DNA of 43,385 bases from a virus. The stretch lies in the UHGV virus genome UHGV-0217911. The stretch is one strand, 5' to 3'. The position numbers were made by a program, and so were the translations under genes. This document shows positions 2,324 through 27,508 of this stretch, in pieces; positions within the stretch are counted from its first letter, which is position 1, and every line of letters begins with the position of its first letter. A model generated the notes under the pieces. That model saw nothing but the letters and a program-made list of their open reading frames with translations, was not told the origin of the DNA and made no database searches.

Positions 2324-2749
2324 ATGGCGACTGAGAAAAAGAAAGGTGGTCGCCCCTCTGATTATATGCCGGAGGTGGCTAATGACATTTGCGCATTGCT
2401 TTCCTCCGGTGAGAGTCTGCGCAAAGTTTGCGAACGCCCAGGAATGCCGAGCAAAACATCAGTTTTTCGCTGGCTGGCTGAACATCAGGAGTTTCGTGAC
2501 CAGTACGCGAAGGCAACAGAGACTCGGGCCGACTCTATTTTCGAAGAGATATTCGAAATTGCTGACGACGTAATCCCTGATGCCGCCGAGGTGGCAAAGG
2601 CAAGACTTCGCGTTGATACCCGCAAATGGGCGCTGGCCAGAATGAATCCCCGTAAGTATGGCGACAAGGTAACTAATGAGCTTGTCGGCAAAGACGGCGG
2701 CGCAATCCAGATTGAAACATCACCGATGAGCACTCTGTTCGGAAAATGA
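2324..2749 (+). CDS. Terminase small subunit (Sf6 gp1-like)
   Basis: 141 aa, MATEKKKGGRPSDYMPEV... N-terminal HTH-like region, immediately upstream of and overlapping the large terminase. Confidence 0.85.
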   Translation: MATEKKKGGRPSDYMPEVANDICALLSSGESLRKVCERPGMPSKTSVFRWLAEHQEFRDQYAKATETRADSIFEEIFEIADDVIPDAAEVAKARLRVDTRKWALARMNPRKYGDKVTNELVGKDGGAIQIETSPMSTLFGK

Positions 2750-4161
2750 CCTCGATTAATCCTATCTTTGAACCGTTCATTGAGGCGCATCGCTACAAAG
2801 TCGCCAAAGGCGGTCGAGGTAGCGGTAAGTCATGGGCAATTGCGAGGCTGCTTGTTGAAGCGGCGCGTCGGCAGCCTGTGCGCATCCTCTGTGCTCGTGA
2901 ACTGCAAAACAGTATCAGCGATTCGGTAATCCGGTTGCTTGAAGACACCATCGAGCGGGAAGGGTATTCGGCTGAGTTTGAAATTCAGCGTTCAATGATT
3001 CGTCATCTCGGAACGAATGCTGAATTCATGTTCTACGGCATCAAAAACAACCCGACGAAGATTAAATCGCTAGAAGGCATTGATATTTGCTGGGTGGAAG
3101 AAGCGGAAGCGGTAACGAAGGAATCATGGGATATCCTGATACCAACCATCCGTAAGCCGTTCTCTGAAATATGGGTGAGCTTTAACCCGAAAAACATCCT
3201 CGACGATACCTATCAGCGATTCGTAGTAAACCCTCCCGATGATATTTGTCTGCTGACGGTGAACTACACCGACAACCCGCACTTTCCTGAAGTTCTCCGT
3301 CTGGAGATGGAAGAGTGCAAACGCAGAAATCCGACACTGTATCGTCACATCTGGCTTGGTGAGCCGGTAAGCGCAAGTGATATGGCAATCATCAAACGAG
3401 AATGGCTTGAAGCTGCAACCGATGCGCACAAGAAACTCGGATGGAAAGCGAAAGGCGCTGTTGTCTCTGCGCATGACCCATCAGATACAGGGCCAGATGC
3501 TAAAGGTTACGCATCGCGTCACGGTTCGGTAGTTAAGCGCATTGCTGAAGGTCTGCTGATGGACATCAACGAGGGGGCTGACTGGGCTACTTCGCTGGCG
3601 ATTGAAGACGGTGCTGACCACTACTTGTGGGATGGTGATGGTGTCGGTGCAGGGCTACGCAGACAGACAACGGAAGCGTTCTCCGGTAAGAAAATCACCG
3701 CCACGATGTTCAAGGGCAGCGAATCGCCATTTGATGAAGATGCACCGTATCAGGCCGGAGCATGGGCTGATGAAGTCGTACAGGGTGACAACGTTCGTAC
3801 TATTGGCGATGTATTCCGCAATAAGCGAGCGCAATTCTATTACGCGCTGGCTGACAGGCTGTATCTGACATATCGGGCGGTTGTCCACGGTGAGTATGCA
3901 GACCCCGACGACATGCTGAGTTTCGACAAAGAAGCAATAGGCGAGAAGATGCTGGAGAAGCTGTTTGCAGAACTGACGCAGATTCAGCGCAAATTCAATA
4001 ATAACGGGAAGCTGGAGCTTATGACTAAGGTCGAAATGAAGCAGAAGCTCGGTATTCCATCTCCTAACCTGGCTGATGCGTTGATGATGTGTATGCATTG
4101 CCCGGAGTCGGCTGCGCAACCCGACTATTCCAGTTACTCAATTCCTTGTGGTGTGGGTTGA
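2746..4161 (+). CDS. Terminase large subunit (ATPase/nuclease)
   Basis: Walker A motif GGRGSGKS near the N-terminus, 471 aa, positioned between small terminase and portal. Confidence 0.9.
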   Translation: MTSINPIFEPFIEAHRYKVAKGGRGSGKSWAIARLLVEAARRQPVRILCARELQNSISDSVIRLLEDTIEREGYSAEFEIQRSMIRHLGTNAEFMFYGIKNNPTKIKSLEGIDICWVEEAEAVTKESWDILIPTIRKPFSEIWVSFNPKNILDDTYQRFVVNPPDDICLLTVNYTDNPHFPEVLRLEMEECKRRNPTLYRHIWLGEPVSASDMAIIKREWLEAATDAHKKLGWKAKGAVVSAHDPSDTGPDAKGYASRHGSVVKRIAEGLLMDINEGADWATSLAIEDGADHYLWDGDGVGAGLRRQTTEAFSGKKITATMFKGSESPFDEDAPYQAGAWADEVVQGDNVRTIGDVFRNKRAQFYYALADRLYLTYRAVVHGEYADPDDMLSFDKEAIGEKMLEKLFAELTQIQRKFNNNGKLELMTKVEMKQKLGIPSPNLADALMMCMHCPESAAQPDYSSYSIPCGVG

Positions 4162-7363: not shown

Positions 7364-8617
7364 ATGGCTAACCAATTAGCAAAAGACCTTGAAATCATGT
7401 TCGAAAACTACGTTGAAGGCTTTGAGGCCGCCTGCGTAGTTTCCCGTAACGCTAAAAAATTCCGTCCCGGTGATACAGCAATGCAGCGAGCAGGTGATGT
7501 TCTGTATCGTCCGCAGCATTACCACATGAACATTGAGGAAGGCCTCGATCTCAGCAGCAAAACGCCAACAGCACTGGTTCAGCGCCTTGTTCCTTCTGTG
7601 TTCAAGGAGCCGAAAAACATTCTGTACACTCTGGATGCGCGTGAAATGCGTGACCCGGAACATAAAACTGAAGCTGGTCGAGCCGCAGGTATGCGCCTTG
7701 CTGCACAGATTGACTCTGACCTGATTTCCATGGTTACGCAGCGTGCTACTAACGTGATCACGATGGCTGACTCAACCACAGGTACACAGGGCCGTGATTT
7801 GTGGAACTGTGCGGCAGGTATTGATGCCACCATGACGGCGATAGGTGTACCGCAGGGTATCAACCGTCGCTCTTTCTGGAACCCCTTCAACTACAAAGAC
7901 CTTGCTGGCGAGCTTGGTCACCGTGCCTATGCTCAGGGCGCAACCCTGACAGCATACGAAAAAGCGCAGATCCCTCCGGTTGCGTCCTTTGATAGCTACA
8001 AGACCGATATTTCTGGTCGATTACCGAAAGGAAGCACTGAATCCTTGACAGTATCAGGCCAACCTGAACACAAGGTTGAAGCGAAAGATTCAAATGGTAT
8101 GCCAGTTGATAACCGACAGGGGACTATTACGGTATCTGCATCTGGCTTGCAGGTTGGTGATGCGTTCACCATTGCCGGTGTGAATTCCGTACACCAGATC
8201 ACAAAAGATACCACCGGGCAACCGCAGGTATTCCGTGTTCTGGCTGTTAGCGGAACTACCGTAACAATCTCTCCAAAGATTCTCCCTGTTGAAAATGCCG
8301 ATGTTGCGAGTCGTCCATATGCAAACGTCGATGCCAAACCGGCAGCATCAGCAGCAATCACCATTCTCAACAAGAACGCAGCACCTGCTAACCTGTTCTG
8401 GGCTGATGGTTCTGTTGAGCTGATGTACGGCAAACTGGCGTTCCCGACTGGTCAGGGTCCACAGGTAATGACAGCAACCACCGAGCAGGGCGCTACGCTG
8501 ATCATGTCTTACGCCTTCGACCACATCAAAGGCGTAACCACTGCTCGTTTCACCACTCTGTACGGTTGCTCTGTACTTGTTCCTGAATATACGGGCATCG
8601 TTATTGCCGGGCAGTAA
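7364..8617 (+). CDS. Major capsid (coat) protein, P22 gp5-like
   Basis: 417 aa, position after scaffold, P22-coat-like C-terminal blocks, and a strong terminator immediately downstream. Confidence 0.85.
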   Translation: MANQLAKDLEIMFENYVEGFEAACVVSRNAKKFRPGDTAMQRAGDVLYRPQHYHMNIEEGLDLSSKTPTALVQRLVPSVFKEPKNILYTLDAREMRDPEHKTEAGRAAGMRLAAQIDSDLISMVTQRATNVITMADSTTGTQGRDLWNCAAGIDATMTAIGVPQGINRRSFWNPFNYKDLAGELGHRAYAQGATLTAYEKAQIPPVASFDSYKTDISGRLPKGSTESLTVSGQPEHKVEAKDSNGMPVDNRQGTITVSASGLQVGDAFTIAGVNSVHQITKDTTGQPQVFRVLAVSGTTVTISPKILPVENADVASRPYANVDAKPAASAAITILNKNAAPANLFWADGSVELMYGKLAFPTGQGPQVMTATTEQGATLIMSYAFDHIKGVTTARFTTLYGCSVLVPEYTGIVIAGQ

Positions 8618-8658: not shown

Positions 8659-8847
8659 ATGGCACAAACAATGCTCTATAAGCCTGGAAACATGATCACC
8701 TGTGGTCAGTTTGCTGTCGATTACATCATTGTTGATGACGAAGAAGTTAAATCTCACCTGAAAAAAGGTTGGGTAAAAACTCCTGAAGAAACCGCAACGA
8801 AGCAAAAAGTGGCTAAGGCGGAAGAAGATGGCGAAAACGAAGGGTGA
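8659..8847 (+). CDS. Small hypothetical protein between coat and gp4
   Basis: ATG preceded by GGGAG; the track ORF begins upstream, but that start would lie inside the terminator hairpin, so the internal ATG is preferred. Confidence 0.45.
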   Translation: MAQTMLYKPGNMITCGQFAVDYIIVDDEEVKSHLKKGWVKTPEETATKQKVAKAEEDGENEG

Positions 8848-9289
8848 TCTCGTTCTTAAGGCTTTACGAAAAGCCGGGCTGTATTCCAATGCCACGTTGA
8901 CAGATGCTGACCCTCAGGCAATTGAAGATGCCATTAATGACCTCGAAGACATGATGGCAGCATGGCAGGCTAAAGGTATCGAGCTTGGATATCAGTTTGC
9001 TGATACAGAAAACGGCATCATGCCGTTACCTGACGATGATTCAGGTATCCCTGCATGGGCAAATGATGGCGTCGCTTTGAAACTCGCTGTGCAAGTGTGC
9101 ATGGATAACGTCATTCAGCCGTCAGACGCTCTCCTTACCGCTGCTGACAGTGCATATCAGACAATCTGTATCGCTTTAACCAAAATACCACCACTTGAGC
9201 GACGAAATGACATGCCTCGCGGGGCGGGGTTAAAAAGCGCGTTTACGTGGAATCGGTTTTACATCGAGAAAGATGATCCGAGTACGTGA
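8828..9289 (+). CDS. Head completion / tail adaptor protein (P22 gp4-like)
   Basis: MAKTKGDLVLKALRKAG...TLTDADPQAIEDAINDLEDMMAAW matches the gp4 N-terminal pattern as recalled. Confidence 0.8.
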   Translation: MAKTKGDLVLKALRKAGLYSNATLTDADPQAIEDAINDLEDMMAAWQAKGIELGYQFADTENGIMPLPDDDSGIPAWANDGVALKLAVQVCMDNVIQPSDALLTAADSAYQTICIALTKIPPLERRNDMPRGAGLKSAFTWNRFYIEKDDPST

Positions 9290-9298
9290 GGTGAATAA

Positions 9299-10717
9299 AT
9301 GCCGATTCAGCAACTTCCGCTTATGAAAGGTGTCGGCAAAGATTTCAGAAACGCCGACTATATCGACTATCTGCCAGCGAATATGTTGGCTACACCCAAA
9401 GAAATCCTTAACAGCAGCGGATATCTTCGCTCATTCCCGGGCATTGCCAAACGTTCTGATGTGAATGGTGTATCGCGCGGTGTCGAGTACAACATGGCGC
9501 AGAATGCTGTTTATCGCGTTTGCGGTGGCAAGTTGTATAAGGGCGAAAGCGAGGTCGGTGATGTTGCCGGAAGTGGTCGCGTATCAATGGCGCATGGTCG
9601 AACATCTCAGGCGGTAGGCGTTAACGGGAAACTGGTCGAGTATCGCTATGATGGCACGGTTAAAACCGTCTCAAACTGGCCTACAGACAGCGGATTCACG
9701 CAGTATGAGTTAGGTTCTGTTCGTGACATTACGCGCTTACGCGGGCGTTATGCGTGGTCAAAAGACGGTACTGATTCATGGTTCATCACTGACCTTGAAG
9801 ACGAATCGCATCCTGACCGATACAGCGCACAATACCGCGCAGAATCACAGCCGGACGGAATCATCGGCATAGGTACATGGCGAGACTTCATCGTCTGCTT
9901 TGGTTCATCGACGATTGAATATTTCTCCCTGACTGGTGCAACCACAGTTGGTGCTGCTTTGTATGTCGCACAGCCATCGCTGATGGTGCAGAAAGGCATT
10001 GCCGGGACTTACTGCAAAACGCCATTCTCTGATTCATATGCGTTCATCAGCAATCCGGCAACAGGTGCGCCGTCTGTGTACATCATCGGCTCCGGTCAGG
10101 TATCACCAATCGCCAGCGCGAGCATTGAGAAAATTCTTCGCACCTACACTGCTGATGAACTGGCTGATGGCGTAATGGAGTCTCTGCGATTTGATGCGCA
10201 TGAGCTGCTGATTATCCATCTTCCGCGCCATGTCCTCGTATACGACGCATCTTCAAGCGCCAATGGTCCGCAATGGTGTGTGCTGAAAACAGGCCTGTAT
10301 GACGATGTGTACCGCGCTATCGACTTCATTTACGAAGGCAATCAGATAACGTGCGGCGATAAGCTGGAATCTGTTACCGGGAAACTGCAGTTCGATATAT
10401 CTTCACAATACGAAAAACAACAAGAGCATATTTTATATTCCCCTCTAATAAAGGCAGATAACGCTTTAATAAATGACCTTGAATTAGAAGCATCGGGCGG
10501 CGTGTGTGATAGAATAGATAAAATATTTATATCAGCCACTACAGATGGAATTAGTTACGGTCGTGAGCAAATGGTCGTATTACAAAAAACATTTGTATAT
10601 GACAATCGCGTTTTATGGCGAAAGGTTGGTCGAGTTAGACGCCTCATTGGATTTAAATTCAGAGTTATTGCAAAAGGTCCTGTCACATTATCAGGCCTTT
10701 CTATTCGTGTAACATAA
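9299..10717 (+). CDS. Tail hub / packaged-DNA stabilization protein (P22 gp10-like)
   Basis: 472 aa with near-identical blocks to P22 gp10 (MPIQQLP..KGVGKDF.NADYIDYLP, RGVEYN.AQNAVYRVCGGKLYKGESEVGDVAGSGRVSMAHGR). Confidence 0.85.
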   Translation: MPIQQLPLMKGVGKDFRNADYIDYLPANMLATPKEILNSSGYLRSFPGIAKRSDVNGVSRGVEYNMAQNAVYRVCGGKLYKGESEVGDVAGSGRVSMAHGRTSQAVGVNGKLVEYRYDGTVKTVSNWPTDSGFTQYELGSVRDITRLRGRYAWSKDGTDSWFITDLEDESHPDRYSAQYRAESQPDGIIGIGTWRDFIVCFGSSTIEYFSLTGATTVGAALYVAQPSLMVQKGIAGTYCKTPFSDSYAFISNPATGAPSVYIIGSGQVSPIASASIEKILRTYTADELADGVMESLRFDAHELLIIHLPRHVLVYDASSSANGPQWCVLKTGLYDDVYRAIDFIYEGNQITCGDKLESVTGKLQFDISSQYEKQQEHILYSPLIKADNALINDLELEASGGVCDRIDKIFISATTDGISYGREQMVVLQKTFVYDNRVLWRKVGRVRRLIGFKFRVIAKGPVTLSGLSIRVT

Positions 10718-10738
10718 ATCGAAACTCAAGGAGTAGAT

Positions 10739-11272
10739 ATGTTAAGTGAAAACGCAAAAGATATCGAAGGATATGAAGGACTGTACGCCATCACTAATGA
10801 TGGTAGAGTTTACTCGCATTCAAGAGTAAATTTGAGGGGACGTCTTATTAAGGGTAGGTGGCTGAAGCATAATCATAACGTAAATGGATATAAGTATGTG
10901 TGTTTATATAAGGATGGCGTAAAAAAGAACATACTAATACATAAGCTTGTTGCATCTCACTTTGTTGGTGGATTTGCTGAAGGGTTACAGGTAAATCATA
11001 TAGATGGTGATAAATACAATAATAACTATCTAAATCTTGAATGGGTTACTCCATCAGGAAACATCTCACACTCATATGGATTGGAGTCGAGAGGTAATGT
11101 AAAAGGAGAAAGGAATGGTAATTCTAAAATATCTAATGATGATGTCATAAAGATAAAAGAAATGGTTGCCAATGGATTTCCTCAGTGTGAAGTTGCTAAA
11201 TTATTTGGAATTCACAATTCAAAGGTTAGTAGAATTGTAAATGGCAAGGCATGGAGGCATGTTAATGGCTGA
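10739..11272 (+). CDS. HNH homing-type endonuclease (NUMOD4-like N-terminus, HNH core, C-terminal HTH)
   Basis: [17 protein letters not shown] motif, a NHIDGDK...N...LEWVT HNH core, and a C-terminal HTH ([17 protein letters not shown]). The gene is AT-rich and inserted between gp10 and the needle. Confidence 0.8.
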
Positions 11273-12218
11273 TTCGAATCTCAATACACCTGTTATTGTT
11301 CAGGCGACGCGGCTCGATACATCAATCCTTCCACGCAATATCTTCTCGCAGTCATATCTGCTTTACGTTATCGCACAGGGCACTGATGTTGGTAACGTGG
11401 CTAACAAGGCCAACGAAGCAGGGAAGGGGGCTTATGATGCACAGGTGAAGAATGATGAGCAGGATGTCACCCTTGCAGACCATGAATCCAGAATTGCTGC
11501 TGCTGAAGCAACTCTCGTCAATCATGAACATAGAATCGCAGCAGCGGAAAGCACTCTTGCAGATCATGAAACAAGGATTACTGCTGCCGAAACAGAGCTG
11601 GCTGATCACGAGACGCGAATTGCTGCCAATGAATCTGAGTTAGCAAACCATGATGCGCGAATAACTCAGAATACAACCGATATCAACGCACTTGATACCA
11701 GGCTCACAGCGGCAGAGGGAAGTATTTCGACGCTACAAAGCACAGTTGGTGATCACTCAACAAGAATATCTGCGCTTGAGTATGCCACCACGCGCAAGAA
11801 ATCAGAGGTTGTTTACTCTGGCGTATCTGTAACCATTCCGACAGCGCCGACCAACCTTGTTAGCCTGCTGAAAACGCTCACGCCGTCATCCGGCTCGTTG
11901 GCACCATTCTTCGACACCGTTAACAACAAGATGGTTGTGTTCAACGAGAACAAAACCTTGTTCTTCAAGCTGTCGATTGTCGGGACGTGGTCCAGCGGAA
12001 CTGCTAACAGATCAATGCAGCTAACATTTTCCGGCTCTGTTCCTGACACACTGGTTAGCAGTCGTAATGCGGCAACAACAACCGACAACATCCTGTTAGC
12101 TACGTTCTTCAGCGTGGATAAAGACGGCTTTCTTGCCACAAATGGCAGTACGTTAACCATTCAGTCAAATGGTGCGGCGTTTACTGCCACAACCATCAAA
12201 ATCATTGCGGAGCAGTGA
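11265..12218 (+). CDS. Tail needle (P22 gp26-like) with extended C-terminal domain
   Basis: N-terminus [43 protein letters not shown] (gp26-like), followed by four or five tandem 14-residue coiled-coil repeats (LADHE.RIAAAE..) and a C-terminal domain of about 150 aa. Confidence 0.8.
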
Positions 12219-12697
12219 TGGAAATAAAGCTCATCGATAATCCGGTGAAGCTTGCAGAATTCCTCAACAACCCGGCAAACACGGGAAATATCGTAGACAG
12301 TGGAGACAAATACTACATCAAGCCTGATGCGGTATACCTCGGCATCTACGAAGGACTGATGCTGGTCGGAGTGCATGAAGTGCGTAACTTCTGGCATAGC
12401 GTTGTTGAATGCCATGCGGTGTACGACCCCGGATTCCGTGGCGAATATGCACTGCAAGGGCATCGATTATTCTGCAAATGGCTTCTCGAAAACTCACCAT
12501 TCCTTAACAGCATCACTATGGTTCCTGACACCACGAAATACGGACGGGCAATTATCCGTTTGCTTGGCGCTACCCGTGTTGGTCACCTTGATGATGCTTA
12601 TACCAGCAATGGAAAGCCTGTAGGCATCACGATTTATCAGTTACCGCGCTCAAAATACGAGGAGCTAAAGAATGTTAATTTTCCAGATTGCCAATAA
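12218..12697 (+). CDS. Ejection/assembly protein (P22 gp14-position)
   Basis: 160-aa ORF whose ATG overlaps the needle stop (ATGA); the call is by synteny with 26-14-7-20-16. Confidence 0.6.
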   Translation: MEIKLIDNPVKLAEFLNNPANTGNIVDSGDKYYIKPDAVYLGIYEGLMLVGVHEVRNFWHSVVECHAVYDPGFRGEYALQGHRLFCKWLLENSPFLNSITMVPDTTKYGRAIIRLLGATRVGHLDDAYTSNGKPVGITIYQLPRSKYEELKNVNFPDCQ

Positions 12698-17135: not shown

Positions 17136-17291
17136 ACCAACCTCCTTAGTTTTGCGCAGGATACCAGATGATAATGTGTAGTTGGAGTAGCGCGGTTGTA
17201 ATGCAAGCATTTTGTTTTGGTTTTATGCTTGCTTGTATGTGTGTACAGTGCATATAATGCAAGCATACATCACAATAAAGGTGCTTGCATT

Positions 17292-18278
17292 ATGACTGAA
17301 AAGAAAAGTGGCGAAGGGAAAGCTAAGGGCGGGATCGCTCGCGCAAAGTCGCTGACTAAAGAGCAGCGTTCTGAAATAGCAAAGAAAGCAGCGGCAAAAC
17401 GATGGGAAGGTAAGCCACTAAGAGCGATCAGAAAGGGTAACTTCATTGATGATTTCGGCATTGATGCAGAATGTTACGTACTTGATGATAATGATAAAAC
17501 GGTTGTAGTTAGTAAAACTGGTCTGGCTAAATTACTAGGAATCGGTGAGCATGGTAGGGATGTAGACCGTTTTCTAAATACGAATTATATGGCTGATTTT
17601 GTTGATCCATTTCTGCTAGAAAAATTCAAAAAACCTCTTATTTTTCAATGGAGAAGTCCGGTCCCAAACTCAGCCCCAAATCCACTCGCTGATGAGGCTC
17701 ATGGTTACGATATTGCCCTTATTGGTGATATAGCCACAGCAATGATTAATGCCGATCGAGCTGGCGCACTACCGCCTTCAAGATCAAAATCTGCCAGCCT
17801 TGCCCAAAGACTTGTTACCGCATCAATGAAAGCAGGGCTTAAAGGACTTGGTTATGCTATTGCAGGATATCGACCTGAAGTACAGGAGGTTATTGATTCC
17901 TTCAAGGCCTTTGTTCGTGAAGAGGCGAGGCAGTATGAAAAGGAATTTCCAGATGAGCTATATGAGGAGTGGTATCGACTGTACGGCCTGAACAGGCCAG
18001 AGAAAGGACGTCCAATTCGTTTTGGGCAACTAACCAACATGCAGATATACACTCCGCTAGCAAAGAGTAAAGGTAAAATCCTTGAACAGATTCGAGCCAG
18101 CCGAGACGAGAACGGAAAACAATCTGATAAGTTGCACCTGTTCCTTTCTGAAATTGGTGTCAAGGCTTTGCGTCAGCATATCGGTAAGCTTCTTGGTGTC
18201 GCAGCGATGAGCGAGACAAGAGAAGAATACGAAAAAGGAATAGAAAAGGTTTTTGGAAGAATAAAACCAGAAATCTAA
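17292..18278 (+). CDS. Hypothetical phage protein (hkcC-position of the immI region)
   Basis: ATG at 17292 lies behind a TATAAT box and repeated ATGCAAGCAT motifs; 328 aa with a basic N-terminus (GGIARAKSLTKEQRSEIAKKAAAKRW). Confidence 0.6.
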   Translation: MTEKKSGEGKAKGGIARAKSLTKEQRSEIAKKAAAKRWEGKPLRAIRKGNFIDDFGIDAECYVLDDNDKTVVVSKTGLAKLLGIGEHGRDVDRFLNTNYMADFVDPFLLEKFKKPLIFQWRSPVPNSAPNPLADEAHGYDIALIGDIATAMINADRAGALPPSRSKSASLAQRLVTASMKAGLKGLGYAIAGYRPEVQEVIDSFKAFVREEARQYEKEFPDELYEEWYRLYGLNRPEKGRPIRFGQLTNMQIYTPLAKSKGKILEQIRASRDENGKQSDKLHLFLSEIGVKALRQHIGKLLGVAAMSETREEYEKGIEKVFGRIKPEI

Positions 18279-18281
18279 TTA

Positions 18282-18309
18282 TAAAACCCACCGTCAGGTG
18301 GGTTTTTTG
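18282..18309. terminator. Bidirectional rho-independent terminator between the hypothetical gene and mnt
   Basis: ACCCACC-gtca-GGTGGGT stem flanked by an A-run and a T-run. Confidence 0.6.
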
Positions 18310-18533
18310 TTTTCTTGCATGTTCCTCAGCGTCTCAAGCAGCGCATCCCTGAATTTGTCAGCCTCTTTCTGAGCAAATTCATTGCTATTAAGCGATCTAC
18401 CACAAACAGCATCTTCGATAATCTGTATTATTTCAGCATTCATGGAACGCTTGTTATGTTGCGCCCTGGCTTTAACCTTTGCCTTTAACTCTTTGGAAAT
18501 CCTAATATTTATTTGCGGCTCTTCGCGTGACAT
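18294..18533 (-). CDS. mnt: Mnt-like ribbon-helix-helix repressor
   Basis: 79 aa; the N-terminal beta-strand/helix pattern INIRISKELKAKVKARAQHNKRSMNAEIIQIIEDAV is Arc/Mnt-like, and the gene is divergent from arc-ant. Confidence 0.7.
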   Translation of the reverse strand: MSREEPQINIRISKELKAKVKARAQHNKRSMNAEIIQIIEDAVCGRSLNSNEFAQKEADKFRDALLETLRNMQENKKPT

Positions 18534-18585
18534 ACCACCTCCATAGCATTTTGGTGATATTACTATTGCATCACTGCGATCACAA

Positions 18586-18604
18586 TGGTATAACGGTTAT
18601 ACCA
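18586..18604. promoter_or_regulatory. Perfect 19-bp palindrome TGGTATAACGGTTATACCA (candidate Arc/Mnt operator)
   Basis: Perfect 9-1-9 inverted repeat in the mnt/arc divergent intergenic region, about 18 bp upstream of the arc ATG. Confidence 0.5.
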
Positions 18605-18621
18605 AATTGATTGGAGGTAAT

Positions 18622-18795
18622 ATGATAGTCAAGTCAGACGCACCAAAGTACCCTTTGCGCATCCCATTAGAGGTTAAGTTAGCAATCGAGAAGTCAGCGA
18701 AAGAAAATGGTCGCTCAATAAATACCGAGATGGTAATGCGGTTGGTGGATAGTTTAAGGCGGGATAGTTCTAAAGGTAATCTAGCAAAAAGTTGA
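18622..18795 (+). CDS. arc: Arc-like ribbon-helix-helix repressor
   Basis: 57 aa; PLRIPLEVKLAIEKSAKENGRSINTEMVMRL matches the Arc RHH pattern, with GGAGG 5 nt upstream of the ATG. Confidence 0.7.
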   Translation: MIVKSDAPKYPLRIPLEVKLAIEKSAKENGRSINTEMVMRLVDSLRRDSSKGNLAKS

Positions 18796-18857
18796 AGCCC
18801 CAACTGCGGTAACAGTCAGGGCTTCGTTATCAACAAATCGGCTTAGGAAATATTGAC

Positions 18858-19736
18858 ATGAAAAGTATAGCAAAGGCACAAAACGATTTCACCATCTTCA
18901 AATTCGGCGACAGTGAAATCCGCGTCATCAACAAGTGCGGTGAGCCGTGGTTTGTAGCTAAAGATGTTTGTGATGCTTTAGCTTTGACTAACTCACGCAA
19001 GGCGCTTACTGCACTTGATGACGATGAAAAGGGAGTAACTTTAAGTTACACCCTTGGTGGTGAGCAGAATCTAAGCATTGTGAGCGAATCAGGTATGTAT
19101 ACATTGGTTCTGCGCTGCCGCGATGCAGTCAATAAAGGTTCAGTCCCACACAAATTCCGCAAGTGGGTAACAGCAGAAGTTCTGCCTTCAATTCGCAAAC
19201 ATGGCGAGTATGTTAAAGGAAAGAAAACCACTGTTGAGGAAAGAACACCGCTACGCGATGCAGTAAACATGCTGGTAGGAAAGAAAGGACTTCGCTATGA
19301 CGATGCATACAATATGGTTCATCAGCGTTTTGGTATTGACAGCATTGATGAACTTTCAATTGAACAAATCCCGCTGGCAGTAGAGTACATCCACAGGGTA
19401 GTGCTTGAAGGTGAATTTATCGGCAAACAAGAGAAGAAAACCAACGAGCTTTCTGCAAAAGAAGCAAACAGCCTTGTATGGTTATGGGATTATGCCAACC
19501 GCTCACAGGCATTATTCCGCGAACTGTATCTGGCGCTAAAACAAATTCAATCGAACTATTCCGGCAGATGCTACGACTATGGCCATGAGTTCTCGTATGT
19601 TATCGGAATGGCGAGAGACGTTTTAATCAATCACACACGAGATGTTGATATTAATGAGCCAGACGGACCAACGAATCTTTCCGCATGGATGAGACTTAAG
19701 AATAAAGAATTACCTCCTTCAGTACATAACTACTGA
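18858..19736 (+). CDS. ant: Antirepressor (Ant) with Bro-N/AntA-like N-terminal domain
   Basis: 292 aa; [15 protein letters not shown]...[18 protein letters not shown] is the Bro-N pattern, and the gene follows arc. Confidence 0.8.
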
Positions 19737-19836: not shown

Positions 19837-21915
19837 ATGACAGACATTACAGCTAATGTTGTAGTGAGTATGCCTTCGCAACTCTTCACTATGGCTCGTT
19901 CTTTTAAAGCGGTTGCCAATGGCAAAATTTATATCGGTAAAATTGACACTGACCCGGTAAATCCTGAAAACCAGATTCAGGTTTATGTGGAGAACGAAGA
20001 TGGTTCTCACGTTCCTGTTGCACAGCCAATCATCATTAACTCTGGCGGGTATCCTGTATATAACGGACAGATTGCCAAATTCGTTACCGTGCAAGGCCAT
20101 TCTATGGCTGTTTATGATGCATATGGTGCGCAGCAGTTTTATTTTCCTAATGTGCTGAAGTATGACCCTGATCAGTTTCAGAAGAGGTTGGCATCCTTTG
20201 ATGATGGTGATGGGGATGAATTAGTGTCGGTGAAACAACCATTCCCCGGAGCAGCAAATCAAACTCAACACCAAAAGAACCAACAAATCATTGATGTTCT
20301 TGACTTCGGTGCTCATCCATCGAATGCTGACAATAAAGTAGCTCTGCAATTTGCGCTAGATGCAATATATAGCATTGGAGGAGGTACACTACAGTTTTCA
20401 CTACCAGGCATATATACTTTGCTTTCTGAGTTGCAAATAAAATCAAATACTCACCTAAAGATGACTGATGGCGTAACCATTAAACGTAATTTTTCTAATG
20501 ACGTCATGCTGAGAATAAGCCCTAATACTGGCACTAACATTAAAATAACAGGCGGAATACTAGATGGAGGAGGACAAGACCACCCTACAGATCCTTTTGA
20601 CATCATTGCAGCCTCCTCACCAAGAAATCTTTCTATTGTTGGAGTAACATTTCTTGATGTAGTCGATTTTCATGCTGTAGATATTGCTGACGGGCAAGGG
20701 GTGATTATAAGAGACTGTAAGTTTCTTGGCTTCAAACCACTTTCCAACCGAAATTATTCAGAAGCGATCCAGTTAGATCCGGGGATTGAATCTCTTGGCG
20801 ATTATTACCCAAACATCAATGTTCTTGTTGATAACTGTTATTTTGGTTCAAATCCACAAAATACCACCACTGGGTTTGGGGCGTGGGGGGCGGGGGTTGG
20901 GAACCATGCTAATTCATATGGGAATCAGGACAAAAATATAAGGGTCATAAACTGCAGGTTCGATGGAATGCTCTTTGCCGGGGTAAGGGTTTTCAACTGG
21001 TATGATTGGGTGGTTAGCGGATGCTCTTTCTATAACAGTACCGCGCGAGGAGTTCATGTAACCCCATTCCCATCATCATCAAAACCACAGGGGGCAAGGA
21101 GGGGGCGCATTGTTGGCAATTATTTTGAAGGCGTTAGATCCCCGATTCTTCTGGCTGCACCTACATATCCATATACAGATACATCAGATGCATTTCATGA
21201 AGATATCGTAATATCCAACAATTCCATGTTTATTACAGAGTCTCAATCATATGCAGTAGACGCAAGATGGGTTTCAGGACTAACTGTCACTGGAAACACA
21301 GCAAGAGGAGGAATCGGTTTTTTCAAAGGTGATTTTATTAATAAATCAATCATCTCTAATAATGAATACGATTCAGGAACATCAAGTTCTTTATGGATTT
21401 CTGAAACTAATGCAGAAGAATTTATAGGGTCTGGTTTTTCGCATGATGTTGTAATTTCTAGCAACATCTTTAGAAACATTTCCCTGCATGGGATTCATAT
21501 TAATGGTAAATATTCAAATGTTACTATTCAATCAAACATTATAGTTGGGGTTTCTACCGCAGATAATAACCATAATGGCATACGAATTGACTCTGGTGCA
21601 GAAAATGTAATTGTTAGTTCAAATCAAATTCGTGATGGCGTTGCAAATAATAAACCATCAGTTGGTATATTTGCTACATCAAGCTGTAAGAGCGTGTCAT
21701 TTATAGGGAATGTTTCATTTGGAACATCAGCCACACAGAATAATCAAGCTACAGATAAAAGCTCACTTGTGATATTTGGGCAAGAAGGCAACCCAACATC
21801 TAGCGGAGTTGGAGCACCAGTTGGTTCTATTTACACTCGTTCTGATGGAGGTGGAAATACAGTACTTTATATAAAGGAAAGCAACACAAATGCTACAGGT
21901 TGGGTTAATAAGTAA
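19837..21915 (+). CDS. Tailspike protein: conserved P22-type N-terminal head-binding domain plus a divergent beta-helix receptor-binding domain
   Basis: The first ~110 aa ([13 protein letters not shown]...[25 protein letters not shown]...[24 protein letters not shown]) are P22 gp9-like. The remainder is AT-rich and unlike P22, with repetitive beta-helix-like segments. Confidence 0.85.
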
Positions 21916-22199
21916 AACCAGCATTTAAATACAATATATATCATAAAACTTACATAATAGTTATAACTATAATTCTTGCTTAAGAATTTATAAAAACTGA
22001 GACACACAAAGCTTTGCACTGGATTGCAAGGCTTTGTGCTCTTCTATGCTGAGTGGCTACATGTTTGAAGATCGTTGTGCCGTATTTGTGACATACACAT
22101 GACAACATCATGCATCAGCTTTCTGTTTGTGCCATCAACTATAGCTTAGTGAATGCGGTTAATGCTTGCTAAAACAGATAGTTATGATTGGTGCTACAG

Positions 22200-22245
22200 A
22201 TTCGTAATGCGAAGGTCGTAGGTTCGACTCCTATTATCGGCACCA
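22200..22245 (+). repeat. 46-bp copy of the tRNA-Thr (thrW-type) 3' end from anticodon loop to CCA; attR core of the P22-like prophage
   Basis: ATTCGTAATGCGAAGGTCGTAGGTTCGACTCCTATTATCGGCACCA carries the CGT anticodon loop, T-arm and acceptor 3' strand, but the 5' half of the tRNA is absent. Confidence 0.8.
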
Positions 22246-22849
22246 TTAAGAAAATCAATAACTTAGCTTAACTTCTCTAAGAAATTGTATCTTCTGTTAT
22301 CACTTACAAACGCCTATACGTTGTTATGGGCTTTGGTAGTGTAACACGTATGGGCGAGTAGTTCACAGGCTCAACCTCGTAACAAGTTCCTTTGAAGCTG
22401 GAAGACGTGCCACCGTCTCTAAACCTTCTACCAAAACTCTTAGCAAGATGTTCCACACCTGGCGCGGTGTCCAATGATGCTACACGTCGTGAGACGTTGC
22501 AGAGGATAAACAGGCTAAATGATGGGAAGAGTTTTAAGTGCATAGTGGATTAAAGCCCACCTCTTCAAAACCTAACTTGATCGGGAAAGAATCAAGCTCT
22601 AGCACGGTTTCGTCCACCGGAGTACAACGGGTGCCTGATAAGAGAAGAACTGCTAAGACTTCATAGCTTTTGTGAAAAAGCCCTTTTTAGTGGATACGCC
22701 TACGGCGCTTATTTTTTGGTATAACCATCAAAGGCGCTTTATGGCTCCTATTGTCTTGAAAATGTATCTTTACTTGTATTGTGTTTTATGCGTAGCCTTC
22801 CTGTGTAGTATGTAACTTGTTAATTTTCATATGAATACAGAGGCACACG

Positions 22850-23002
22850 ATGAAAAACATTGCAGCTATCAAACGTAATAACCGCAAGATTCACGCTCGT
22901 AAGTTCCTGTCTACGCCAGAAGGAAAAGCCTGGCTAGAGCGTAAACAGCGAGAGAACGAAGAAAGAAAACTCCTTAGTGAGTTGAAATGGCTTAAGGATT
23001 GA
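22850..23002 (+). CDS. Possible small basic protein (50 aa)
   Basis: ATG with GAGG 7 nt upstream; product MKNIAAIKRNNRKIHARKFLSTPEGKAWLERKQRENEERKLLSELKWLKD. Below the ORF-track length cutoff. Confidence 0.3.
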   Translation: MKNIAAIKRNNRKIHARKFLSTPEGKAWLERKQRENEERKLLSELKWLKD

Positions 23003-23567
23003 ATCACCAGTAGGCGCATAACACATCCAGCGATCAAAGATGTGTTTATGCACCTGATAGTGAAATTATTAAAGTCGTTTAGTTAACATCGCCATTGCTT
23101 GAGCAATAATTGCAACAGCGTCCATCTCTTCACTGGAAGCGATGCAAATGCGGTAACTAATAGCCACAACGAATACATCAATAACGAGAAAGTGAATAGT
23201 GTGAAGATGTTTTGAAAGTAAATGCATAACTTCCTCCGGTTTTACGATAGGAAGATTAGAACATGCATTAAATGATGTTACAAGGGTGGTAATTTACCCT
23301 AATAGTCTACTATTCACCTCAATCTACGTCAACCAATATTTGATGTAGATTTAATTTTCTTTTAAAAACAATGTGTTGCAATTTGTTGAATTTTGGGGTT
23401 AGGTTGTTTTTTGAACGTTTTCATCAAGTGTAAAGATACGTTTAGCCTTCATAGTGAGTTCAGTTACTGTCTTTTTCTCTGAAATCGGCGCAGACGTGAT
23501 CAATGTTTAACGCGAAGATCAGCGGCGTCAGGTCCACGCAGCGACAATTCTCAAATATCAGGAGGCA

Positions 23568-24125
23568 TTACGCTTCCTGCTCTTTCTTGATACGTTGCAC
23601 CGTCTGTGTGCTGACACTGAAATCTTTTGCTACGCTCCGAATTGATCCACCATTCGCGAGAGCGGCAACAATTCCCGCTCGATCAATTGCTTTTCCATTA
23701 CCACGTTTTGCTATACGTCCAGCGGCCTTAGCTGCGGCGATCCCCTCACGCTGCCGCTCAAGCATCATTTCACGTTCCATTTGTGCCACTGCTGCAAGCA
23801 CTGTGAGCATCATATTCCCTGCGGGAGAGTTCTTCCCTGTCTTAAAGTCTTCTTTATGGAAATGCACAGACACGCCGCGCTCTGTTAATTGCTCAACCGT
23901 TGCCAGTAGGTCGGCTGTATTACGGCAAAGTCGATCAATGCTGTGAACATGCAAAACATCACCTTCACGCACATAGTTCATCATTGCCTCAAACTGTGGG
24001 CGCTGGGTATTCTTGCCTGACGCTTTATCTTCAAAGACTTTATCAAGAGTTACTCCAGCTAATTGACGGTCTGTGTTTTGTTGGACAGTCGATACCCTAA
24101 TGTATCCAATATTAGCCATTTTCAT
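23568..24125 (-). CDS. Serine recombinase (resolvase/invertase family)
   Basis: 185 aa; N-terminal catalytic domain IGYIRVSTVQQNTDRQ with the active-site serine, and a C-terminal HTH (GGSIRSVAKDFSVSTQTVQRI). Confidence 0.85.
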   Translation of the reverse strand: MKMANIGYIRVSTVQQNTDRQLAGVTLDKVFEDKASGKNTQRPQFEAMMNYVREGDVLHVHSIDRLCRNTADLLATVEQLTERGVSVHFHKEDFKTGKNSPAGNMMLTVLAAVAQMEREMMLERQREGIAAAKAAGRIAKRGNGKAIDRAGIVAALANGGSIRSVAKDFSVSTQTVQRIKKEQEA

Positions 24126-24644
24126 TTTCCTTCTGTGTTGATTTGTGTGTAGTGATTATTGATCGTGTTGATTAGGTGTGTAAAGGACTTTTTTCACTAC
24201 GAAATTCGAAGGTTTTTAGTGTGGTGATTTAGCCTGCTTTATCACTACACGTCTTGCATGAGAATCATGTAGTTACGTTTTGGTAAAATTAGCAAGCTAT
24301 TAAATAGTGTGTTTATTTTGAAAAAATAATTTTTTGTTGCATTAAAGAAACTTGTTCGACAAATGATAGAACGTTTATTGAGCAACAATTTTGCAGTGAT
24401 GCGCTATATGCCGCATTACACAAGGCACAGCGAAAGTGATGTAAAAGTGAAGAAAGCTAACATTGCACTTTTAAGCTACTTTTCATTGAATTTTTACGTA
24501 GGAATTACACAGGGATTAATCATCAATTACATTGAATTTAAGCCTGTTTTAGATGTTTAATTTTGGTAGCAAGAAACACTTTTAGAAGATCATTGCACAG
24601 ATGTTATGTGATAAATGGATGTAACGGTAGGTCACTGTGAACTA

Positions 24645-24780
24645 CCCCCACAGAATTCTGTTATCCTTAACTTTTAAAGAAATATGCACCCTAACAGAAA
24701 ACTGTTACCCCAACCCTAACAGAATTATGTTAGACACCCCCACAGAAAACTGTTAGCCACCCCTACAGAATTTTGTTACC
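24645..24780. repeat. Five iterons (1 + 4 tandem, about 22-23 bp period), each containing the dyad AACAG-N4-CTGTT
   Basis: ACAGAA cores at 24650, 24694, 24719, 24742 and 24765; consensus CCCYWACAGAAWWYTGTTA, followed by an AT-rich stretch. Confidence 0.7.
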
Positions 24781-25742
24781 TATTAGATCAACTATCAAAC
24801 TACAATTAAATTATCTTTTATAAATTCTTTTATCTTTAAAGAATAATTAAGGGATACCCGTTAGGGAGTCTTCGACTATCCCTTAATCTATTGGCATTCG
24901 CCAGAACCTTGCACAAGTTAGAGTGTTAGTCGTTAGACTGCTTGTCATAACACATAGTTTTTTGTTTGTTGATGTTAGTTAGTAGATCTATGTTCGCTAA
25001 TGCCGCTCACAACGAATATGTAATCTACTATGTGCAAATAGCCTACGGCTTGCGTAAGGCTAAATAGTCTTGCGCTGTGCGCAGAACGATAATTAACTAA
25101 CTACCATCTAACGATTGAAATTTACTTGTGCAATAACCTGAGCGTAAGCGAATGGTTGTTAGTGTCTATGCGCTGTGCGCTTCAATAGTTCCATTGATGA
25201 GGCTTACGCCAATCTAACGATCATCAATCTATTTAAGAGAAAATCTATTGTGCAATACTCTGACGAGTGCAATAACCTTGTGTGCTACGCGTTAGCGATG
25301 TTAGCACACAGACAACAACCAACAACAAACAAAAAAGAAAGAATGGTTTTAGTAGTTGAAGGTTAAATAAGTTTCTACCGCTTAAATCAAGCCGTAGGCG
25401 AGCTAAACGTATATAAGGTAGGGAAACACTTAGCGGTAATAGATTAGCTCGTTATAGAGCTTCTGAGAGCTTTGCAGGTATTTTATAAGGTGTTTGAAAT
25501 CAGAGTTTATCTATCATCATCTTTCCATCATCTAACAAATACAAAATAAGCCCCTTAAACAAGCCTCTGACGAGATAAATAGCCTCTACATAAGGGAATG
25601 TCTTGTTTTTATCAAAACCTCGTCAGAATGCGATTGAGAGCGTTTTAGACAATAGTGGAGAATTGTACCAGATAAGATAGCACAAAAAGATAAGAAAAAT
25701 TATAAGAAATTGAAAAAGATCGTATTTTTTATGAAAGGGGGG

Positions 25743-25771
25743 TTGACAAAAGCCTCCATATGTAGTAAAGT
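25743..25771 (+). promoter_or_regulatory. Sigma70-like promoter candidate (TTGACA-17 bp-TAAAGT) for the downstream four-gene module
   Basis: Consensus -35 TTGACA with 17-bp spacing to a TAnnnT -10, about 120 bp upstream of the first ORF. Confidence 0.35.
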
Positions 25772-25891
25772 AAATGTGAGGGGTAAGAAAAGCATCTCCC
25801 CCATCTAAATAATCAAATCACAATACACTGCACTTTGAGCCGTCAGGCTGCAAGGTGTGTTTTTCTTTTATTTGAATAAGGAATTACAAAA

Positions 25892-26074
25892 ATGAAATGG
25901 TTTACACCAAATGACATTGTTTCTGCGTATCTCGCTGGTGAGATGACCCGCTACCAGGTTCGCCAGAATCGTAATACAGCCCGTCGCCGTGGCTACCCAG
26001 AGCGTGAAAAATGCTTTGACGACGCACTAAAAATTATTGATGAACTGCGTAAGGCAGAAGCAGAGAAAGAATAA
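25892..26074 (+). CDS. Small hypothetical protein (60 aa)
   Basis: ORF with AAGGAA 8 nt upstream; first gene of a tightly packed module. Confidence 0.45.
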   Translation: MKWFTPNDIVSAYLAGEMTRYQVRQNRNTARRRGYPEREKCFDDALKIIDELRKAEAEKE

Positions 26075-26095
26075 TAACAGGAGAAGGAGAAAACT

Positions 26096-26266
26096 ATGAG
26101 CGAAACTACAGAAAAGAAAAGACAACCACGCACTTGCTTTCATATTCCTGATGAAGTATTTCAGGTGTTGTTTAAAGAAGCCAGAAGTAAACGTATCACT
26201 GTTACAGATTACATTCTTGATATGTTGAAAAGAGAGGCTGAAACACTCTCAAACAAAAGCAAGTGA
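26096..26266 (+). CDS. Small ribbon-helix-helix-like DNA-binding protein (56 aa)
   Basis: GGAGAAGGAG SD; product MSETTEKKRQPRTCFHIPDEVFQVLFKEARSKRITVTDYILDMLKREAE has a beta-strand/helix/helix arrangement typical of CopG/Arc-type RHH proteins. Below the track cutoff. Confidence 0.5.
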   Translation: MSETTEKKRQPRTCFHIPDEVFQVLFKEARSKRITVTDYILDMLKREAETLSNKSK

Positions 26267-26319
26267 TTTTTATCACCATAGTAGCGCCGTAGAGCGTGAT
26301 TACATCAAGGAGATTTTTA

Positions 26320-26880
26320 ATGATTAATGAAGAACAATTTGTAAAAGTTCCTATGTGGATTCTAAAAATAAGCCAAGTAAACGGGCATAAATTTACAGAT
26401 AGTGCTAAAAACCTTTACTGCTATTTGAGAGGGTTTGATCGTGCATTTCCCTCTTACGCTAAGATAGGCGATGTTTTTGGCATAACACCAAGAGCAGCAG
26501 AAGAAAGGGTTAAGAAATTGCTCGAAATGGGATTAATTATAAAAGATGCACGACCAGGAAGCTCTAACCTTTATCGAGTGCTTGATATTCCAAAAGGAGA
26601 ATCATCACTACCTGATCCTTCTGAGAAAGAAAACGAATCTAATGAAATATTGAATGTTTCAGAAATCATCGTTGAAGAAGAAATACAGGAATCAGAGTTC
26701 CCTGAGCGGCCCGAAATTTTTACTTGGCTTCTTTCCCTTGATAAGAAGAAACCACCGCACGAAGAAACAGAAGACTACGAAGCATTAGAGCGTTATCGTG
26801 ATGAAGTGCTGACGCTCAAGACACCTTTTAACATCGTATTGAATATGATTAATGATGCATTACAAGGAGAAGCCGCATAA
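26320..26880 (+). CDS. Winged-HTH protein resembling phage/plasmid replication initiator N-terminal domains
   Basis: AAGGAG SD before the ATG at 26320. N-terminal NLYCYLRGFDRAFPSYAKIGDVFGITPRAAEERVKKLLEMGLI is a wHTH pattern seen in Rep/replisome-organizer proteins; the C-terminus is acidic. Confidence 0.55.
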   Translation: MINEEQFVKVPMWILKISQVNGHKFTDSAKNLYCYLRGFDRAFPSYAKIGDVFGITPRAAEERVKKLLEMGLIIKDARPGSSNLYRVLDIPKGESSLPDPSEKENESNEILNVSEIIVEEEIQESEFPERPEIFTWLLSLDKKKPPHEETEDYEALERYRDEVLTLKTPFNIVLNMINDALQGEAA

Positions 26881-27188
26881 TGGAAGAAGATATTAGCAAT
26901 GCAATGGAACAACTTTTAGATCTGACTATCTCACTACAAACAAGAATAAATCAAGCCTATTCAGATTTATGCGATTACACGCTCTCTCAATGCGTTATTA
27001 GCTTAATGAAGGTGAATGTAAGCCTTGACGATTTTATCTCTCTGGTGAGCGATTTAGAGCTAATTGAGGACGATGCCAAGATGTGCACTCAAACCATCAC
27101 AGACACCGCCAGCACGTTAAAGGCTGCAAGTGAAGAGATTCAGCAATTAGTAGATGATTTAGCAAAAAGTGCTATTTTCTCTAAATGA
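26880..27188 (+). CDS. Acidic hypothetical protein (102 aa)
   Basis: ORF with start overlapping the upstream stop (translational coupling). Confidence 0.5.
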   Translation: MEEDISNAMEQLLDLTISLQTRINQAYSDLCDYTLSQCVISLMKVNVSLDDFISLVSDLELIEDDAKMCTQTITDTASTLKAASEEIQQLVDDLAKSAIFSK

Positions 27189-27460
27189 TAATGAAAATTA
27201 TTTGCATTTATAACGATTTCATTATATAATAATATTAGGGGTAGATAAAAAGGTTTTGACTGGTGTTAATCCTTCTACTGTCATAAATCCCTGCATATGG
27301 AAGGTGATAGCCTCAAAGGTTGAGTGGCATTAACCTCTAACAAATATTACCTTCCATCCCCTCAAGAAGTTTTAGAATAATCATAACTCCCTCTTTGATT
27401 GTTGATTGTTTCTACGTTGTGTTGATGAATGTTGTTAGGCATTGTGCTTAATTTTGATAA

Positions 27461-27508
27461 AAGCGGGTAGGTGTTATCTCCTTGCCCTTCCCGCTTTTAT
27501 TTTTCATC
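27461..27508 (+). terminator. Terminator-like hairpin plus T-run
   Basis: AAAAGCGGG ... CCCGCTTTT stem with TATTTTT tail. Confidence 0.4.

Follow-up and report, generated by a model that had tools for sequence, protein, structure and literature searches.

How did an AT-rich block carrying an HNH endonuclease gene come to lie between two virion genes of a P22-like prophage? We addressed this question in UHGV virus genome UHGV-0217911, a stretch of 43,385 nt (the window), where the HNH gene sits between gp10, the gene for the tail hub, and gp26, the gene for the tail needle. The initial annotation, made from the sequence alone, had described positions 10380-11272 as a recent homing-endonuclease invasion of an otherwise conserved gp10-gp26 junction. 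Our comparisons indicate that the block at 10399-11264 is probably a free-standing I-HmuI-type homing-endonuclease cassette. It combines the final 319 nt of gp10, a 21-nt spacer bearing a ribosome-binding site of its own, and a 177-aa open reading frame (ORF). This part of the window lies within the late operon of a prophage that is P22-like (Lederbergvirus) and has a tail needle of the Sf6 type, and the features on which the argument turns are as follows, GC3 being the GC content at third codon positions.

9299-10717, + strand: gp10 (tail hub, "packaged DNA stabilization protein"), 472 aa, full length; Pfam Phage_stabilise covers the whole protein (E=1.5e-280).
9299-10398, + strand: native 5' part of gp10, codons 1-366 (GC 0.51, GC3 0.52).
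10399-10717, + strand: 3' end of gp10, an AT-rich nuclease-linked allele, codons 367-472 and the stop.
10718-10738, + strand: 21-nt spacer carrying the Shine-Dalgarno sequence AAGGAG (10728-10733) for the HNH ORF.
10739-11272, + strand: predicted free-standing I-HmuI-like HNH endonuclease gene, allele A, 177 aa, intact (Pfam, PHROG, PADLOC, phmmer, AlphaFold2/Foldseek).
10757-10909, + strand: NUMOD4 N-terminal beta-sheet module, aa 7-57 (Pfam PF07463).
10937-11071, + strand: HNH beta-beta-alpha-metal catalytic core, aa 67-111, with N86, H87, N99, N108 and H111 (Pfam PF13392).
11123-11248, + strand: C-terminal helix-turn-helix (HTH)-like putative DNA-binding module, aa 129-170 (HTH matches below cut-off, modelled helices).
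11253-11272, + strand: last 20 nt of the HNH ORF, with the gp26 Shine-Dalgarno sequence GGAGG (11253-11257) and the stop/start overlap.
11265-12218, + strand: gp26 tail needle with an Sf6-type knob, the right flank, outside the foreign block (Pfam Phage_tail_NK, E=8e-106; GC 0.485).

The block stands apart from its surroundings in composition. GC content changes from ~0.50 to 0.33-0.39 between ~10400 and ~11270, and the 866 bp of the block have a GC content of 0.353, compared with a mean of 0.500 (SD 0.017, minimum 0.440) in other 866-nt windows of the late operon. The change falls within gp10, whose last 321 nt have a GC content of 0.358 and a GC3 of 0.224, as against 0.510 and 0.522 in its first 1098 nt. 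Both the AT-rich HNH gene ahead of the tail needle and the AT-rich turn at the 3' end of gp10 had been pointed out in the initial annotation, and both were borne out.

We then set the junction against relatives that have no nuclease gene between gp10 and gp26. JEP4, Sf6, HK620 and UPF_BP1 all join gp10 directly to gp26 with a 1-nt overlap (TAATG), so a conserved junction is indeed interrupted in the window, as had been proposed. Up to ~10398, gp10 shares ~94% nucleotide and 99% amino acid identity with JEP4, Sf6 and HK620; its last 106 codons have 56% nucleotide and 64% amino acid identity to the common allele of JEP4, with frame and full length kept. Normal similarity to the relatives returns exactly at the gp26 ATG, which marks the right edge, and the left edge lies at ~10399, about 20 nt downstream of the start first assigned to the element. 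Across the junction, carriers span 1271-1283 nt versus 723 nt in non-carriers. The comparison with gene-free relatives thereby located the insertion point, as the initial annotation had suggested it would, but by alignment the block reads as a replacement of ~320 bp together with a net insertion of 548 bp and not as a simple insertion. We found two left breakpoints, near 10399 and near 10429, and at least three left-junction haplotypes (EK, DK and an Sf6-like GL); this diversity reveals crossovers into different recipient backbones.

The cassette is compactly joined to its neighbors on both sides. Its spacer has the same length in all carrier loci and a near-identical sequence in Escherichia, Citrobacter and unassigned loci, and the ATG of the HNH ORF lies 5 nt past AAGGAG. 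At the other end, the HNH stop lies over the gp26 start in an 8-nt overlap (ATGGCTGA), the true gp26 start being the ATG at 11265. The first ~22 nt of gp26 (ATGGCTGATTCGAATCTCAA...) are near-invariant in E. coli- and Salmonella-type loci with or without the nuclease gene, and polymorphisms further into gp26 show no linkage to it. Neither a promoter-like site on the + strand nor a terminator-like site was found in or beside the block. A search of 9000-12500 against Rfam returned no RNA family, group I introns included, and the gene is therefore not housed in a group I intron.

As to where the AT-rich gp10 end came from, a scan of species-representative genomes gave only an ordinary Citrobacter gp10 at 64% identity, and tblastn against phages gave a best match of 68% (Proteus phages) apart from Escherichia phage HZ41, a carrier described below. 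Providencia is the nearest lineage (70% amino acid identity), and we rejected it as the direct source because its GC3 of 0.48 is too high.

What does the gene encode? Pfam placed NUMOD4 (PF07463) at aa 7-57 (E=5e-13, 49.5 bits, cut-off 23.4) and HNH_3 (PF13392) at aa 67-108 (E=5e-10, 39.3 bits, cut-off 24.8), the best match in PHROGs was PHROG 59, HNH endonuclease (E=2e-49), and phmmer against PDB sequences aligned aa 7-174 to residues 4-163 of I-HmuI (1U3E; E=8e-21, 31% identity). An AlphaFold2 model built from 49 homologues (mean predicted local distance difference test score, pLDDT, of 91) has a beta sheet at the N terminus, a beta-beta-alpha core and, at the C terminus, three helices, with the NUMOD4 strands at residues 6-8, 16-19, 24-26 and 52-58 (pLDDT 85-97). 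When this model was compared with the PDB by Foldseek, 1u3e_M was the sole match at E<=0.001 (E=6.3e-10, 178 aligned columns, TM score 0.52). The NUMOD4-like module named in the initial annotation thus scores well above its Pfam threshold. The HTH module named with it is less firmly placed: matches to HTH_23, HTH_38 and HTH_37 at aa 129-170 all fell below the Pfam cut-offs (best 18.6 bits versus 24.6), and its assignment draws on the three modelled helices (133-144, 149-156 and 160-167; pLDDT >90), which align with the C terminus of I-HmuI, and on isolated Foldseek matches to HTH domains.

The catalytic residues are in place. Y16, G22, H68, N86, H87, N99, N108 and H111 are invariant in the alignment of the 49 homologues, and in the phmmer alignment N86, H87, N99 and N108 correspond to D74, H75, N87 and N96 of I-HmuI. 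In that enzyme H75 is the general base and N96 and D74 are metal ligands (PMC2816704). A core of this type is defined by a general-base His, an Asn that holds this His in position, and an Asn or His that binds the metal. As judged from its sequence, the protein is an HNH (His-Me finger) endonuclease of the I-HmuI-like subfamily, with all family-invariant catalytic residues present, and we would expect it to act as a nuclease. It is identical to a protein of E. coli K_EC180, WP_000947776.1, which RefSeq calls "NUMOD4 domain-containing protein"; NCBIfam has no model for it or for either gp10 allele. PADLOC gave only generic "homing endonuclease" models (E=1e-31), and membership in a defence system was set aside on that ground.

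We next considered how widely the cassette occurs. We surveyed 5426 complete E. coli genomes, of which 913 matched a 1.2-kb junction query and 1453 a 6-kb region. The AT-rich gp10 end was present in 56 of the 5426 (56 among the 913-1453 with the region), and an HNH gene lay beside it in every one of the 56. Allele A (177 aa), the allele of the window, accounted for 36 of these genomes, and the two 181-aa alleles B and C for 16 and 4, respectively. Insertion sequences interrupt three of the E. coli copies. In IMG/VR, an HNH gene followed downstream in 29 of 29 loci with a nuclease-linked gp10 C terminus (79-98% identity), and its start, in all loci where it could be assigned, lay 22 nt past the gp10 stop; loci with other gp10 C termini had such a gene in 0 of 24 cases and showed no GC contrast. 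Among ~130 related phage isolates the cassette was found only in Escherichia phage HZ41, with allele B. The gene is therefore not a universal, syntenic and compositionally inconspicuous member of this phage group: 56 of at least 913 genomes and 1 of ~130 isolates carry it, and the GC contrast is strong. Nor does carriage follow overall relatedness to the window, given that the nearest non-carrier, BEN2908, is 96.6% identical to it and the nearest carrier 96.2%.

Several observations concern individual copies. In swine enterotoxigenic E. coli (ETEC) strains, seen in K_EC180 (L002, 10793-16864; loci are numbered with an L), an intact cassette lies in a heavily deleted P22-like remnant. Its gp10 and HNH gene are the only whole genes there, and fragments of terminase, gp4 and the needle gene have been fused to one another. 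Other elements have entered the AT-rich cassette in three independent events:

L034, 3365-4062 (M160133): IS1 in the spacer.
L035, 3909-5137 (ETEC6333 and ETEC6334): IS3-family element in the 5' end of the HNH gene.
L059 (IMG/VR): insert of ~780 nt between the gp10 stop and the HNH gene.

RefSeq names the ordinary gp10 "packaged DNA stabilization protein gp10" and the chimeric, nuclease-linked gp10 "packaged DNA stabilization protein" only, so that the product name alone flags carriers.

A free-standing homing-endonuclease gene is expected to be better conserved than its flanks and phylogenetically incongruent with them. In the allele-A loci, identity to the window was 92.7-99.1% for the gp10 3' end and 96.0-99.8% for the HNH gene, compared with 83-94% for the gp10 5' part, 72-94% for the 5' part of gp26 and 74-98% for gp4. 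By this measure the cassette is more conserved than its flanks, and it seems to move as a unit across backbones. The arrangement recurs at this site in Citrobacter, in Providencia and in two unassigned assemblies, where left edge and gp26 stop/start overlap match as well; the loci are given here with the identities of their HNH gene and of gp10, and with GC content in the order gp10 5' part, gp10 3' end, HNH gene.

Citrobacter sp. C411 (L039): HNH 87%; gp10 5' part 73% (nucleotide); GC 0.52, 0.35, 0.36.
Unassigned assembly (L040): HNH 60%; gp10 5' part 69.5% (nucleotide); GC 0.54, 0.39, 0.38.
Unassigned assembly (L041): HNH 52%; gp10 N-terminal part 92% (amino acid); GC 0.51, 0.36, 0.38.
Providencia rettgeri (L042): HNH 44%; gp10 N-terminal part 42% (amino acid); GC 0.44, 0.43, 0.39.

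The Providencia locus shows no GC contrast. At the right edge, TGGAGGCATGT(T/G)AATGGCTGA is kept across alleles A, B and C, the Citrobacter allele and L041, and Providencia and L040 have an equivalent overlap of HNH stop and gp26 start. In a neighbor-joining analysis of 34 gp10 C termini, the nuclease-linked ones formed one bipartition (bootstrap 88%, or 99.8% without Providencia); the N-terminal parts of the same gp10 proteins are 42-99% identical. Proteus phage Brookers, which has no nuclease gene, has a gp10 C terminus that groups with the non-carriers.

The nuclease itself has diversified at this site. Alleles A, B and C share 45-50% identity with one another, and all alleles at the gp10-gp26 site have in common the first ~29 residues and a C-terminal WRHVNG (the last 6 aa). 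Within each of alleles A, B and C, the ratio of nonsynonymous to synonymous substitution rates (dN/dS) is 0.04-0.07, with 0.06-0.07 for allele A. The HNH alleles are also mosaic (window positions 10739-10880 compared with L003, L007, L039 and L041): the Citrobacter allele combines allele A with a segment of B type (VVKASHGSTQLRKGRWLK), and the N-terminal 47 aa of a paralogue from another site, between gp4 and gp10, are near-identical to allele B, with two substitutions. This mosaicism suggests recombination among nuclease paralogues residing at different sites. The initial annotation had spoken of a recent invasion. Relative to the divergence of the backbones that wording can stand, but as a unit the cassette is old, with several alleles, representatives in Citrobacter and Providencia and a single gp10 C-terminal clade; "recent" fits at most its arrival in a given backbone.

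How would such a cassette spread? In the scheme that we favor, the HNH gene would be transcribed with the late operon, and the enzyme would nick or cut a cassette-free P22-like genome replicating in the same cell, either at or near the conserved gp10-stop/gp26-start junction (consensus TGAGGATTGAATAATGGCTGATGA, which the insertion splits) or within the common gp10 3' end. Resection would then strip away the ~320 bp for which the carrier offers no usable homology, and repair would copy the whole 866-bp block, crossing over within the conserved 5' part of gp10 and the opening bases of gp26. With only 56% identity between the two versions of the gp10 3' end, exchange would have to take place in these flanks, and with crossovers confined there the 866-bp block would be inherited as one piece. 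The carrier would itself be protected because the insertion splits the junction and because its gp10 3' end is only 56% identical to the target. Homing, cleavage and marker exclusion at this locus, like the target site and the one-way direction of conversion, are what the sequence comparisons and the known behavior of related enzymes would lead one to expect.

A stronger version of this scheme is conceivable, in which the cassette is a "cleave-and-rescue" drive of two parts: the enzyme would be directed at the common form of the gp10 3' end, and the linked, diverged end would serve as the resistant rescue copy. We regard this version as tentative and somewhat doubtful. The complete linkage of the AT-rich gp10 end to the HNH gene does not discriminate between the two targets, since with so little homology it would be enforced whichever of them is cut.

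Several points weigh against the view of the block as a homing cassette. The gp10 3' end and the HNH gene are 21 nt apart, and at 56% identity the former has diverged too far for crossovers to occur in it, so their complete linkage is expected anyway and is no proof that the gp10 segment gives immunity. The junction is the most conserved 24-mer among 26 distinct non-carrier sequences by a slight margin (0.87 versus 0.79-0.86), and with so small a lead over other 24-mers we set its conservation aside as evidence for the target site. Many of the 56 E. coli carriers are clonal (swine ETEC, O111), so the independent events number fewer than 56, and intact copies sit in decayed prophages such as that of K_EC180, where homing cannot act now. 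Finally, a metal ligand of I-HmuI, Asp74, is replaced here by Asn86; this Asn is invariant throughout the subfamily, and we found no characterized enzyme with Asn at this position.

Three other explanations of the block were considered. It might be a passive mosaic module, its gp10 C-terminal segment and HNH gene exchanged by general homologous recombination without any self-driven spread, and its ORF kept for some other reason, such as coupling to the translation of gp26. P22-like phages are highly mosaic, the flanking gp4, gp10 5' and gp26 segments reassort as well, and lack of homology alone accounts for the linkage; moreover, the end of the HNH ORF runs over the start of gp26 and contains its Shine-Dalgarno sequence, so that read-through translation could be selected. 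Coupling, however, would not produce a dN/dS of 0.04-0.07 along the whole protein or invariant catalytic residues, and the cassette is clearly more conserved than its flanks. The nuclease also belongs to a family that includes I-HmuI, with its solved DNA complex, and members for which marker exclusion has been shown (PMC12724721). We consider passive exchange unlikely.

The strong purifying selection, long persistence and several alleles at one site would suit a nuclease domesticated as a competition or exclusion factor, retained for damaging the gp10 of co-infecting or superinfecting P22-like relatives, with copying as a by-product. An essential virion gene holds, or adjoins, its putative target, and marker exclusion by I-HmuI-type enzymes is documented (PMC2988022, PMC12724721). 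Set against this, no + strand promoter-like site was found from which a repressed prophage could express the gene, a position in the late operon argues against expression in lysogens, and the PADLOC matches are to generic homing-endonuclease models only. We give this explanation a small chance; it overlaps with homing and differs from it mainly in the level at which selection acts. P22-like phages package their DNA by a headful mechanism, which speaks against yet another possibility, that the protein is a packaging-associated HNH nuclease of the HK97 gp74 type, which in cos phages works together with terminase. The gene has tail genes on both sides, with the large terminase ORF ~6.6 kb upstream, and the predicted architecture of its product, NUMOD4-HNH-HTH, is that of I-HmuI. 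Many phages do encode an HNH protein needed for DNA packaging (PMC3592412, PMC5304195). Nevertheless, ~94% of the relatives have no such gene, viable phages (Sf6, HK620, P22) among them, and this distribution effectively refutes a packaging role, which we hold to be extremely improbable. A homing-endonuclease cassette thus remains our preferred explanation of the block.

A related arrangement exists at the opposite end of gp10, where some loci carry a paralogous 194-aa HNH gene between gp4 and gp10:

L007, 2833-3625: E. coli K56-43-un.
L038, 1249-2100: Salmonella phage UPF_BP1.
L048, L053 and L060: IMG/VR loci.

There the HNH gene is preceded by the same spacer (AAATCGAAACTTTAAGGAGTAGATATG) and by a 93-nt relic of the original gp10 5' end, and the gp10 that follows is diverged over its first ~120 nt (50-73% identity, GC 0.42) and ~100% identical thereafter. 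Some prophages have both cassettes, so that gp10 is flanked by nucleases on both sides. The same cleave-and-rescue logic may apply at the gp10 5' end with the paralogous nuclease, in which case gp10 would be besieged from both ends. The window is without this gp4-gp10 cassette, and no second HNH gene of the same family was found in it.

The rest of the window provides the context of the late operon and of what lies beyond it.

2746-4161: large terminase ORF.
7364-8617: coat protein.
8828-9289: gp4.
From 12215: gp14, then the ejection proteins.
17217-18278: P63C-domain protein.
18858-19736: Bro-N/P22_AR_C antirepressor-like protein.
23568-24125, - strand: resolvase/invertase.
32906-34270, - strand: tyrosine integrase.
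35922-40052, - strand: SPATE-type serine-protease autotransporter, 1376 aa.

The ejection genes and the tailspike are separated by an immI-like region (17217-19736), as is usual in P22-like phages. Past the tailspike (19837-21915) the window goes on into AT-rich DNA (21000-28000 and 32000-43385), with the resolvase/invertase, the integrase and the autotransporter in it; several ORFs there (28783-29814, 30200-32101) had no match in Pfam. The DNA beyond the tailspike looks like an adjacent island or prophage cargo.

Part of this was already known: the protein is in RefSeq, HNH insertions are on record at other P22-like sites, and the current understanding of homing endonucleases is unchanged. 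Our literature search, whose scope left the main comparative study of P22-like virion genes outside, turned up no description of the gp10-gp26 cassette, of its allelic series or of the link to a gp10 clade. The cassette accounts for a sharp mosaic boundary within an essential virion gene and for the different RefSeq name of the chimeric gp10, and it suggests that a selfish nuclease can carry a foreign protein segment from one phage lineage to another, in this case the C-terminal 106 aa of the tail hub. Were the cleave-and-rescue version true, a foreign tail-hub C-terminal domain would have been forced through P22-like phages of several enterobacterial genera. If the enzyme is active, the P22/Sf6/HK620 group, genetically tractable and structurally well characterized (7SG7, 8TVR and 8EAP are solved tail structures containing gp10), would gain a homing system. 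With several natural nuclease alleles at one site and natural gene-free recipients, work on marker exclusion, co-conversion and the evolution of target specificity would be straightforward.

Among characterized enzymes, the closest parallel is I-HmuI of Bacillus phage SPO1 (PDB 1U3E; relatives I-HmuII, I-BasI and I-TwoI). It has 174 aa versus 177 aa here and the same order of modules (NUMOD4, HNH, and a C-terminal HTH that is putative here), the two proteins align end to end, and the general-base His and both Asn residues are conserved. The gene for I-HmuI lies inside a group I intron of a DNA polymerase gene, whereas the gene described here is free-standing between virion genes; the position of Asp74 is taken by Asn86, and the host is a temperate enterobacterial podovirus. 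P22-like phages also have HNH paralogues at other insertion sites, namely SEN22 (between terminase and portal), the epsilon34 gene 31 fusion, UPF_BP1 and K56-43-un (both between gp4 and gp10), N7 and ST-35, which share 43-48% amino acid identity and a near-identical N-terminal coding region with the cassette gene; the SEN22 and epsilon34 insertions have been recorded before (PMC5261728, PMC2629481). The I-HmuI-like HNH genes of lactococcal Skunavirus are likewise intergenic. According to the abstract describing them, they occupy several sites, vary between isolates, cluster by insertion site and have been shown experimentally to cause marker exclusion (PMC12724721). They belong to other hosts and to another phage group, and that abstract mentions no recoded end of a neighboring gene that is obligatorily linked to the nuclease.

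In its expected behavior the cassette resembles the free-standing endonucleases of phages, which engage in "intronless homing" with co-conversion of flanks and marker exclusion (PMC2988022). Like SegA-G and MobA-E of the T-even phages, it is an intergenic ORF with its own ribosome-binding site, occurs sporadically and has its flanks carried along, and the outcome predicted here, localized marker exclusion, is the same (PMC2988022, PMC2790892). The Seg enzymes are GIY-YIG nucleases, the Mob enzymes are HNH nucleases with other DNA-binding parts, and both reside in lytic phages. What accompanies the T-even genes is a variable tract of few polymorphisms, whereas the companion here is a 319-nt allele of an essential gene, fixed and deeply diverged, which makes up a clade of its own spanning several host genera.

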